Shown: positions 30,007 through 41,174, counted from the first letter of the stretch. The stretch is DNA of 64,000 bases from an uncultured Candidatus Saccharibacteria bacterium (GCA_945873065.1 CAMCBN010000003.1:5166-69165); one strand, 5' to 3'. The notes: a model not told the origin generated them from the letters alone. Numbers and translations are program-made.

Positions 30007-30054
30007 CAGCATATCATTTGAATGCAGCCTCTGCTATGCAGTATACTCATTGAT

Positions 30055-31530
30055 ATGAAACAACCTCAATTTGTAACATTGAAATTAGAAAAAATCGTTG
30101 GCGGCGGCCAAGCTATCGGTACGCTCGAAGACGGGCGCAAATGTTTTGTATGGGGCGGCCTGCCGGGCGAGACGGTAACAGTGCGCATTACCAAAAAGAA
30201 GTCGCGTTTCGTTGAGGGCGTAGTGGCGAAAGTTTTGGCTCCATCGCCCGAACGGATAGAGCCTCGCGACCCTGATAGTTATCTTTCAACCAGCCCTTGG
30301 CAGATTATGAGTTTCGACGCCGAACAACGGCATAAAGCTGCGCTGATCAAAGAAGCATTTGAGCTGCATAAGCTCGCTTTGCCGAATCCGATCGAAGTCT
30401 TTACCGACAGGCGAGAATTTCAATATCGCAACAAGGTTGAATTTAGCTGGTATAGCGACACGGTCAGTCTCGAGCCGCCTCATCCTCAGGACGATCTAGG
30501 TCAAAGCAGAGCTGTCCCGACAGATGATAGTGGTAAAAAGACGACGGACGACGCACGAGACACCCTCGACCTGGCATTCTTTCGCCGCGGCTCTAAAGGC
30601 AAGATCGTCGTGAACGGCACATCGCTGGCACACCCCGAAATTAACACTTTAGCCCGCACCATCCGCGACCTCCTGCGCACTAAGCCCGTCTCTGCCCGCA
30701 ACCTCAAAACTCTCCTCATCCGCTCAGATAAGCAAGGAAACTGCGTCTGGCAATTATATCTCAAAGATGAGCTGCTCGACCTCGTCACCCCCGATGAAGC
30801 CGCTGCGCTACCAGCCCAAGGCGGGGAAATTATTTATTCTGACCCCAAAAGCCCCGCCAGCCGCGTCACCAAGCGCCTGACTGCCTTCGGCGACACCACC
30901 CTCGCTGACACCATCCTCGGCGTCCCATTCCGCTACGCTTGTGAAGGCTTTTTTCAAGTTAACGTACCTGTGTACGAGCAAGCGCTGCGCGATATGAAGG
31001 AGTGGGTCAACGGCTCAAGTTTTGAATCGTCTCATTCTCAAAACAATCCGGAGCGAAGCGGAGCTGTTCTGATGAATGACGATAACACAGAGGCGGCGAA
31101 TAAGCAGGGAACATTAGACCTCTACTCCGGCGTCGGTACCATCGGCCTAACTATCGGCGGCTCGCACGTCACCCTCGTCGAAAGCAACGAACATGCTGTC
31201 AATGAAATGAAACGCAACATCGCCCAGCTTGGCCGCGAAAACACTGCCCGCGCCGTCCTGGCGCCCAGTGAAAAAGCCCTCGGCTATATCACCAGCGACC
31301 AGTTGGTCATCGTCGACCCGCCGCGCGCCGGCCTGCACGCCGATGTCATCGCCAAACTCCTCGAAGCAGCCCCGCCGCGCATCATCTATCTCAGTTGCAA
31401 CCCTGTTACCCAAGCCCGCGACGCCGCCCTCCTGGCCGCCAAATATTTCATCCGCGCTCACCGCGGCTACAATTTTTTCCCGCGCACACCGCACATCGAA
31501 CACCTCGTCGTGTTAGATAGAAAAATGTGA
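30055..31530 (+). CDS. TRAM-domain RNA (uracil-5)-methyltransferase, RlmD/RumA-like, with two in-frame insertions
   Basis: GGLPGETV TRAM, YRNKVEF, FFQVN, LDLYSGVGTIG, VDPPRAG, YLSCNP, FFPRTPHIE. Confidence 0.92.
   Translation: MKQPQFVTLKLEKIVGGGQAIGTLEDGRKCFVWGGLPGETVTVRITKKKSRFVEGVVAKVLAPSPERIEPRDPDSYLSTSPWQIMSFDAEQRHKAALIKEAFELHKLALPNPIEVFTDRREFQYRNKVEFSWYSDTVSLEPPHPQDDLGQSRAVPTDDSGKKTTDDARDTLDLAFFRRGSKGKIVVNGTSLAHPEINTLARTIRDLLRTKPVSARNLKTLLIRSDKQGNCVWQLYLKDELLDLVTPDEAAALPAQGGEIIYSDPKSPASRVTKRLTAFGDTTLADTILGVPFRYACEGFFQVNVPVYEQALRDMKEWVNGSSFESSHSQNNPERSGAVLMNDDNTEAANKQGTLDLYSGVGTIGLTIGGSHVTLVESNEHAVNEMKRNIAQLGRENTARAVLAPSEKALGYITSDQLVIVDPPRAGLHADVIAKLLEAAPPRIIYLSCNPVTQARDAALLAAKYFIRAHRGYNFFPRTPHIEHLVVLDRKM
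30474..30549 (+). repeat. In-frame palindromic element, copy 1
   Basis: Ungapped 46/76 identity to 31026-31101 with 28 of 30 differences being transitions; imperfect hairpin. Confidence 0.85.
31026..31101 (+). repeat. In-frame palindromic element, copy 2 (GCGAAGC apex)
   Basis: Homolog of 30474-30549 in the same frame (offset 552 nt); hairpin centred on GCGAAGC 31053-31059. Confidence 0.85.
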
Positions 31531-40097: not shown

Positions 40098-41174
40098 ATG
40101 AGTTCGTTTTGGAATGACCTGCCGCAGCCGTTTTTCGTCCTGGCGCCGATGGAGGCTGTCACTGATGTAGTGTTTCGCCAGGTTGTCAGGCGGGCAGGCG
40201 CACCGGATATCTTTTTCACGGAGTTTGCTAATGCTACTGGCTGGGTGCACGCTGGTGATAAGGCCATCGCTGGGCGGCTGATCAAAACCGACGATGAACA
40301 CCCGCTGGTGGCGCAAATTTGGGGTGGCGAGCCAGGCGATATGGAGCAATTTGCGCGCCACTGCCGAGAGCTTGGTTTTGATGGGATCGATATCAACATG
40401 GGTTGCCCGGCCAAAAGCGCTATCAAATCGGGCGGGGCGGCGCTTATCCGGAGGCCAGACGTCGCAGTGGCAGCAATTCGCGCCGCCAAAACCGCCGGGC
40501 TGCCAGTCAGCGTTAAAACACGTCTAGGTTACACGTATGCCGATGAATGGCGCGATTGGCTGCGGGTACTGCTCGAGCAAGACATCGTCAACTTAACGAT
40601 CCACCTGCGCACGAAAAGGGAGATGAGCAAGGTGCCGGCGCATTATGAACTCATCGACGAAATTGTCGCGCTGCGCGATGAAGTCGCACCCCAGACACTA
40701 CTGACTATCAACGGCGATATTCGCGACCGCGCGCACGGCCTGGAACTCGCCGCTCAGCACCCCGGCATAAACGGCATCATGATAGGCCGCGGCGTATTTC
40801 ATGATCCGTTTTGCTTTTCGAAATCTGCGAGCGGTATCGCTGAAAAAAATCTGGGCGCGAAGCCGGGACCCGGATTATTTTTCAGTGACACCCGAACAGA
40901 TAGAGAGCTGACGGGGCTTGATGCGCCCGTCACAGCCTCCTCGACAGAGGATATGTCCACTCCTCACAGAGCCGAACTCCTTGAACTGCTCCGCTATCAC
41001 CTCGACCTCTTTGATGAATACCAACCTGTTCTCGAACGCCCCTTCGAAACCCTGAAAAGATTTTTCAAAATCTACATCCGTGACTTCGATGGCGCTAAAG
41101 AGTTGCGCGATCAACTGATGCACACCAGGACAACTGACGAAGCGCGACACGTTTTGCGAAGCGGTAGGTTATAG
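40098..41174 (+). CDS. tRNA-dihydrouridine synthase (Dus family) with in-frame palindromic insertion
   Basis: LAPMEAVTD, FTEF, DINMGCP, VSVKTRLG, TIHLRT, INGDI, GIMIGRG. Confidence 0.93.
   Translation: MSSFWNDLPQPFFVLAPMEAVTDVVFRQVVRRAGAPDIFFTEFANATGWVHAGDKAIAGRLIKTDDEHPLVAQIWGGEPGDMEQFARHCRELGFDGIDINMGCPAKSAIKSGGAALIRRPDVAVAAIRAAKTAGLPVSVKTRLGYTYADEWRDWLRVLLEQDIVNLTIHLRTKREMSKVPAHYELIDEIVALRDEVAPQTLLTINGDIRDRAHGLELAAQHPGINGIMIGRGVFHDPFCFSKSASGIAEKNLGAKPGPGLFFSDTRTDRELTGLDAPVTASSTEDMSTPHRAELLELLRYHLDLFDEYQPVLERPFETLKRFFKIYIRDFDGAKELRDQLMHTRTTDEARHVLRSGRL
40833..40932 (+). repeat. In-frame palindromic element in dus (GCGAAGC apex)
   Basis: Imperfect long stem 40833-40855/40869-40892 with GCGAAGC 40857-40863 in the loop; second hairpin TGACGGG/CCCGTCA 40909-40932. 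Confidence 0.8.

Follow-up and report, generated by a model that had tools for sequence, protein, structure and literature searches.

Paired in-frame hairpin segments in a predicted RNA methyltransferase gene of a Saccharibacterium are probably decaying copies of a short palindromic element

How does the gene of one conserved enzyme come to carry, at two separate places, what looks like the same hairpin-forming stretch of DNA, read each time in the same frame? The question is raised by a segment of 64,000 nucleotides (GCA_945873065.1 CAMCBN010000003.1:5166-69165; "the window" below denotes this whole stretch) from the 853-kb genome of a pig-associated Saccharibacterium. A preliminary description of the window had aligned positions 30474-30549 with positions 31026-31101, without gaps and in frame, and recomputation returned the same counts (46 of 76 positions identical, with 28 transitions and 2 transversions), the same codon phase within the methyltransferase ORF, and the same translations, PPHPQDDLGQSRAVPTDD and SSHSQNNPERSGAVLMND. 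When written in a purine/pyrimidine alphabet the two segments agree at 74 of 76 positions, and an ungapped scan of both strands of the 853-kb genome found no other stretch reaching 58 of 76. Because agreement of this order is unique in the genome, the similarity of the segments is not a product of chance.

The host gene (Table 1) is predicted, from sequence and from a structural model, to encode an m5U RNA methyltransferase of the RlmD/RlmCD type. Pfam recognizes TRAM, tRNA_U5-meth_tr and Cons_hypoth95 in the product of 490 aa, the closest solved homolog is RlmCD of S. pneumoniae (PDB 5XJ1), and the features of this type of enzyme, namely a TRAM domain, a C-terminal U5-methyltransferase fold and a motif I of the form D-x-Y-x-G-x-G, are present according to Pfam, the PDB matches and the model. 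The ORF as listed opens at 30022; since orthologs start with MKQP or MKRP, the ATG at 30055 is likely the start codon.

Table 1. Positions in the window of the methyltransferase gene, its two inserts and the palindromic elements.
Feature	Position	Strand	Remarks
RNA (uracil-5) methyltransferase host gene	30055..31530	+	TRAM plus class I SAM-dependent, RlmD/RlmCD/RumA type (predicted); assigned from Pfam and orthologs
Insert 1 (residues 136-167)	30463..30558	+	From ortholog alignments; between strands E126-135 and E168-175
B-type copy 1	30467..30542	+	Decayed, imperfect hairpin of ~28 bp; segment 30474-30549 lies within the homologous stretch
Insert 2 (residues 320-351)	31015..31110	+	From ortholog alignments; follows helix H303-318 and precedes the first SAM-fold strand
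B-type copy 2	31019..31094	+	Same hairpin; 67/76 identical to the master sequence, closer than copy 1
GCGAAGC heptamer	31053..31059	+	Apex of copy 2; also kept at site 2 in P0002, P0004 and P0005
A-type element in the tRNA-dihydrouridine synthase (Dus) gene (40098-41174)	40831..40893	+	In-frame; model R1 59 bits, E 1.6e-13

The segments had been proposed to be insertions relative to RlmD, and they prove to be extra both with respect to orthologs and with respect to RlmCD 5XJ1, against which the protein has about 32 additional residues at insert 1 and about 27 at insert 2. The orthologs found among 5.8 billion proteins are 433-554 aa long, a range that the whole-genome search extends to 582 aa, and the differences in length are confined to exactly two places, the sites of inserts 1 and 2. 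Many orthologs from the same genus are 436-441 aa long and empty at both sites, as the whole-genome search of relatives showed, and neither insert occurs in the orthologs of other families within the order, which are 414-433 aa long. In ortholog alignments both inserts are missing from these empty-site proteins, insert 2 also from the close relative P0003, and the alignment of empty-site orthologs to the protein encoded here is interrupted at residues ~135/165 and ~318/350; WYSDRAEDGTETLDLAFF and LRDMQQWVENKSVIDLYSGVG are examples of such empty sites. Furthermore, a tree of the core protein places emptiness at both sites on its deep branches, so that emptiness is the ancestral state. Because empty sites occur within and outside the genus, the segments are derived insertions and not ancestral loops. 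Mapped onto an AlphaFold2 model (pTM 0.72), as had been recommended, both inserts fall in loops of low confidence (pLDDT <50 throughout), predicted to be disordered and placed between regular secondary structure, and the two insertion sites appear in the model as surface loops compatible with the protein fold.

The stretch shared by the two inserts, here called the B-type element, is about 80 nt or about 28 codons long, and it can be compared with copies at the same two loops, sites 1 and 2, of close orthologs (P numbers). Near-perfect palindromes are found at site 1 of P0003 and at site 2 of P0004 and of P0005, which fold at -34 to -44 kcal/mol, whereas the two copies of the window fold at -23.6 and -23.7 kcal/mol and site 1 of P0002 folds at -15.6 kcal/mol; it is this weaker folding that marks the copies of the window as decayed. 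Relative to the master-like consensus, copy 1 has undergone 24 transitions and 3 transversions and copy 2 has undergone 8 transitions and 1 transversion. The decayed copy 1 is also present in P0002 (70 of 76 positions identical), and each genome of the B-type clade retains at least one fairly intact copy. The copy that P0003 has at site 1 and the one that P0004 has at site 2 belong to different genomes; they are identical at 57 of 60 positions over the core, in host genes that are 75.8% identical, and these copies are younger or more constrained than the gene around them.

Both copies of the window fold to one common hairpin shape, as the preliminary description had it, and the compensatory pairs listed there reappear in the pair table: 30484C-30523G against 31036T-31075A in columns 19-58, 30490G-30516C against 31042A-31068T in columns 25-51, and 30497T-30508A against 31049C-31060G in columns 32-43. 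The GCGAAGC cap reported for copy 2 is likewise at its apex. Taken singly and set against shuffles, the folding of the two copies is unremarkable (z of -0.5 and -1.7), and their structural signal stems from comparison with other copies. In an alignment of seven B-type copies, 88.8% of cells are paired, as against 26-49% when the partners are slid, seven pairs are altered on both sides, and the covariation score of 0.281 (0.211 in shuffles) was matched by 0 of 500 shuffles. Two arm positions in P0005 are altered jointly on both arms. The forward orientation of the B-type element has a single stop-free frame, which is the frame in use, and a common frame of the two copies would therefore be expected after selection in any case.

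The distribution of the B-type element is narrow. A pattern scan of 105 genomes of the genus found it in the genome of the window and in none of the other 104, a scan of JGI metagenomes gave one match, in an ortholog of the same methyltransferase gene, and none was found in viral contigs. That the B-type element is, or was, mobile is suggested by its presence at two sites and by analogy with two families described below, the A- and D-types.

In other species of the genus, the same two loops of the methyltransferase carry three further palindromic families, designated A, C and D. The A-type core consists of CTCAGAAAAAATCTGGG, a variable loop and CCCGGATTATTTTCTGA, amounting to ~64 nt, or ~84 nt with the outer stems, and its consensus hairpin comprises 21 bp, with 10 covarying pairs. 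A covariance model, the tool that had been put forward for tracing a family, brought out the A-type in 32 of the 105 genomes scanned in the genus; each of these gave 1-7 matches, part of which were counted on both strands. Among 150 genomes representing ~120 other genera of the order the model had no match. Every one of the 73 A-type occurrences defined by pattern, and likewise 14 further copies from other contigs, lies inside a long ORF, and at least seven hosts have been tallied, namely sites 1 and 2 of the methyltransferase, Dus, an RNase HII-YraN protein (in its linker), an ABC-F ATPase, Fpg and MnmA. The element can lie either way round and is read in several frames, hence the unrelated peptides that it encodes (SQKKSG..GPGLFSDD, HHQKIIRDPRKVAQIFSE and YRRKKSGRACHRDPDCFP), and at methyltransferase site 2 it occurs in either orientation, depending on the species. 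In this genus RNase HII and a YraN-like (UPF0102) nuclease domain form one fused protein (loci L033, L035, L039, L128-L132 and L137), with one A-type element or two, in either orientation, in the linker; the copy of L033 has lost its 5' arm.

The genome of the window has one A-type copy, the Dus element, which was first detected by tblastn/blastn and is also the only significant covariance-model match there. It sits in-frame after a DPFCF motif, and other species carry an A-type element at the same site of Dus, forward or reverse (L036 versus L138). Searches of this genome for further copies by the ungapped purine/pyrimidine scan, by blastn and tblastn with all insert types, by fuzzy arm searches and with the covariance model returned the Dus copy only, and copy numbers are low throughout, with three elements here and no more than 7 in any other genome. 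Two weak model matches were discarded, C3:40123 as lying inside a P-type ATPase gene and C2:90911-90969 as a strong hairpin followed by a T-run, in the manner of an intrinsic terminator. A phage vector for the A-type was also considered and dropped, since the single IMG/VR match (L125) is probably not phage-borne: on this UViG contig a Saccharibacteria Dus gene with an A-type element adjoins a tyrosine-integrase-like ORF and probably represents the host flank of a prophage.

The D-type is a palindrome of ~120 nt that is always read in one frame, as (S/D)EGFAFPAKRGQERQLDQLAAERPE, and it has at least four hosts: methyltransferase site 2, LepA (in the G domain), topoisomerase I (TopA) and IleS. 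Its loci in genomes of the genus are L101-L124, and in L006-L010 it is nested in a truncated A-type copy. The C-type (..GDDERGS..GADSSAGPAPSDLR..) occupies site 1 in one genome (L011) and site 2 in another (L024), and was seen in the methyltransferase gene only. Unclassified modules of 36-63 aa are also present at both sites (P0005-P0008, P0017 and P0090). No Rfam family matches the region.

Whether the A- and B-types have a common origin is a separate matter. Both contain an internal TCTCAG...CTGA, the GCGAAGC cap is common to the B-type copy 2 and the Dus element of this genome, and the 5' terminal motifs agree in two cases, GTCTCGAGC of copy 1 being that of the A-type at site 1 and GCCGCAAGT of P0004 site 2 being that of the A-type in ABC-F. 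Model R1 gives B-type copy 2 just 9.2 bits, and local and semi-global alignments of A with B, set against shuffles, yield P values that vary with pair and scoring scheme between 0.008 and 0.8. Homology of the two as an established fact was accordingly abandoned, similarity over the whole element not being significant; on the sequence motifs listed, a relationship is likely but unproven.

The modules at these loops are exchanged quickly. Methyltransferases with near-identical core proteins differ in the module at site 2 (P0017 versus P0082, and P0005 versus P0006), and the differences reach into the flanks, which points to allelic recombination between strains. L114 and L104 are almost identical alleles, site 1 being filled in one and empty in the other. 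Together the three pairs indicate very recent replacement, by recombination or deletion. Comparison of L104 with L114, whose flanks are ~97% identical, reveals neither a clean boundary nor a direct repeat, and the target duplications that the preliminary description had suggested looking for were not seen; the outermost bases of the stems are complementary to each other and are not direct repeats. These outermost 4-6 bp of A-type hairpins are locus-specific yet complementary (L036, L038, L104, L128, L136, L138 and window 40820-40905), and just inside them lies a common GCGAG(Y)GG / CC(C)GAGC motif. The apical loops are common to the loci of one genome or clade and not to orthologous loci. Stems peculiar to the locus, combined with apical loops peculiar to the genome, suggest that copies exchange sequence with one another, whether by conversion, by template switching or by re-insertion. 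A suggested association with an HUH/RAYT gene found no counterpart: in a screen that covered the Y1 family (PF01797), no such transposase was detected in this genome, and the 9 of 61 genomes of the genus that encode one are mostly not those that bear elements. Among the loci read, no long element is bounded by the arms.

The excess of transitions between the two segments calls for less explanation than it might appear to. A related strain, represented by contigs of run X3 from another pig metagenome, differs from window positions 30300-31296 by 46 transitions and 2 transversions in 997 nt; the mutation spectrum of the lineage is thus extremely transition-biased, and most of the 28:2 pattern is explained by it without any special process. 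A deaminase-type process, of which the 28:2 bias might have been a sign, was set aside on these grounds. Relative to P0003, the element and third codon positions have equal transition rates, and the transversion rate of the element is about one third of that at third positions, a deficit that fits some tolerance of G-T wobble together with some resistance to changes that break stem pairs. At orthologous sites the arms of A-type elements are 0.90 identical, compared with 0.80 for third codon positions, and are conserved about as the gene average, while their hairpin loops vary freely. At three positions of copy 1 (30493, 30497 and 30498) the X3 variant has a different base, in every case the one found at the homologous position in copy 2.

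The paired segments are probably decaying copies of a short non-autonomous, hairpin-forming element akin to the Rickettsia palindromic elements. Such an element would have landed in-frame in two surface loops of the RlmD/RlmCD-like methyltransferase, and since the frame in use has no stop and the added peptide is hydrophilic and disordered, the enzyme presumably tolerates it. A look for RNA-seq runs that might show the inserts in the transcript turned up none flagged as RNA. It is hardly credible that the segments are conserved enzyme loops or alike by chance, as one might gather from the weak single-sequence z-scores, given the purine/pyrimidine agreement unique in the genome and the empty sites in orthologs within and beyond the genus. 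A single insertion, or a palindrome arisen de novo, in one loop could have been copied to the other by ectopic conversion or intragenic duplication, in which case the B-type would not be transposable and its likeness to the A-type would reflect shared ancestry of the site or convergence. We regard this as unlikely, though it has several observations in its favour: the B-type is confined to the methyltransferase gene, its two copies share orientation and frame, each site is followed by a similar stretch coding for T-L-D-L, where pairing could be seeded, within each clade sites 1 and 2 hold one type, and the X3 bases that match copy 2 are compatible with conversion. Yet the common frame is to be expected where a single forward frame is open, P0003 combines a master-like site-1 copy with an empty site 2, and simple duplication does not produce an A-type element that stands either way round at site 2. 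Moreover, the A- and D-types, at the same loops, are also present in unrelated genes, from which it follows that a general process of copying between loci exists in the genus.

Selection for a function, for example of the hairpins as mRNA structure tuning translation or decay or of the encoded peptides as flexible loops modulating substrate binding, would make the palindromic form itself the functional feature, and would account for A-type arms conserved above third positions, for arms that change in concert, for the retention of at least one reasonably intact copy in every B-clade genome and for the recurrence of GCGAAGC caps. We think this improbable, because many healthy orthologs do without both inserts, the copies of this genome and of P0002 are clearly decayed, one nucleotide element read in different frames and orientations gives unrelated peptides, hairpin loops vary freely, Rfam holds no matching family, and the inserts are predicted to be disordered. 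Improbable as well is a more radical form of mobility, independent of any transposase and targeted to hairpins, in which, at these two loops and at similar ones in Dus, RNase HII-YraN, Fpg and other genes, modules insert, replace one another or flip at palindrome centres through template switching or cruciform-guided conversion, making up a self-renewing cassette system in essential genes that would not be transposition in the ordinary sense; it is hinted at by the complementary locus-specific stems, the genome-specific apical loops and the occurrence of either orientation at one site.

If the segments are decaying copies of a non-autonomous element, the element would be selfish or neutral DNA and not an adaptation. 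It might reach a new site through a trans-acting enzyme that recognizes the hairpin, through ectopic gene conversion, or through template switching between palindromes, and it might persist because symbionts with small genomes are poor at purging weakly deleterious inserts. Drift after insertion, under a transition-biased spectrum and a residual constraint on pairing, would then give rise to the 28:2 pattern.

The nearest known counterparts are the Rickettsia palindromic elements, reportedly the subject of a study by Ogata et al. in 2000. In the summary of PMC10969869 these are hairpin repeats of ~100-150 bp found in-frame in housekeeping genes, with 44 in R. conorii. The elements described here resemble them in being short in-frame hairpin repeats in housekeeping genes that are unrelated to each other, in a bacterium that depends on a host and has a reduced genome, in adding a peptide at fold-compatible sites through a stop-free frame, and in having copies that decay after insertion and no associated transposase known. 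Dispersal over unrelated genes applies to the A- and D-types, the B-type being two copies in one gene. The likeness claimed is one of kind, in another phylum (Saccharibacteria/Patescibacteria), and the present elements differ in length (~64-84 nt, ~120 nt for the D-type), in having far fewer copies (1-7 per genome, compared with the 44 of R. conorii), in the reuse of two loops of one gene by four families in both orientations, and in their fast turnover between near-identical strains.

Other in-frame or palindromic repeats are further removed. REP elements are extragenic, 20-40 nt long and abundant, and occur alongside a RAYT (IS200/IS605-like Y1) gene; the elements considered here share with them the imperfect palindrome and a conserved feature that is the hairpin rather than the coding content, but they are rare and intragenic (the 73 A-type occurrences, the further copies and both B-type copies). 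PF01797 is, unlike in REP/RAYT systems, absent here and from most genomes that bear elements. The likeness to REP/RAYT thus lacks two defining features, and because there is no RAYT gene the term REP-like is unsupported in that sense; RPE-like fits better. Fusion MITEs that insert in-frame are represented by QMITE1/2 of Coxiella burnetii (PMC5896051), and ERIC and BOX elements can also be intragenic (PMC10969869). The in-frame bacterial MITEs are similar as small, non-autonomous inverted repeats that add a peptide within ORFs, and differ in terminal inverted repeats that match a parent IS and in target-site duplications, neither of which was found here, and in location, MITEs being mostly intergenic and all copies examined here lying in coding sequence; the Coxiella MITEs are more distant from the present elements than are the Rickettsia palindromic elements. 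Protein-coding sequences in mitochondria of Nematomorpha contain long inverted repeats of which both arms are translated (PMC6649704), but these are organellar and much longer, and the abstract of that paper does not report them as a dispersed family for which close relatives have empty sites.

Full-text literature searches that combined Saccharibacteria or Patescibacteria with palindromic elements or MITEs returned nothing relevant. The preliminary description had spoken of a possibly undescribed coding family of MITE or REP-like kind; its first half holds, in that in-frame palindromic elements are dispersed in the genus and no paper describing them was found, and of its second half, a REP-like nature in the RAYT sense is not supported. 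The set of in-frame palindromic families in Saccharibacteria is apparently unreported and in that sense new, and its unusual traits are a very low copy number, the reuse of loops by several families, insertion either way round at a single site, and fast turnover.

To our knowledge, in-frame palindromic "selfish" DNA is textbook matter for Rickettsia only. The present elements mean that the phenomenon recurs in a second lineage of host-dependent bacteria with reduced genomes, the oral and gut Saccharibacteria, and because turnover between near-identical strains is recent, population data or co-cultures may make it possible to catch the mechanism of mobility at work. The inserts also account for much of the range in length, from 433 to 582 aa, of a conserved enzyme within one genus. 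For annotators and for those who predict structures they carry a warning, that low-confidence loops of this sort are mobile DNA and not lineage-specific domains.
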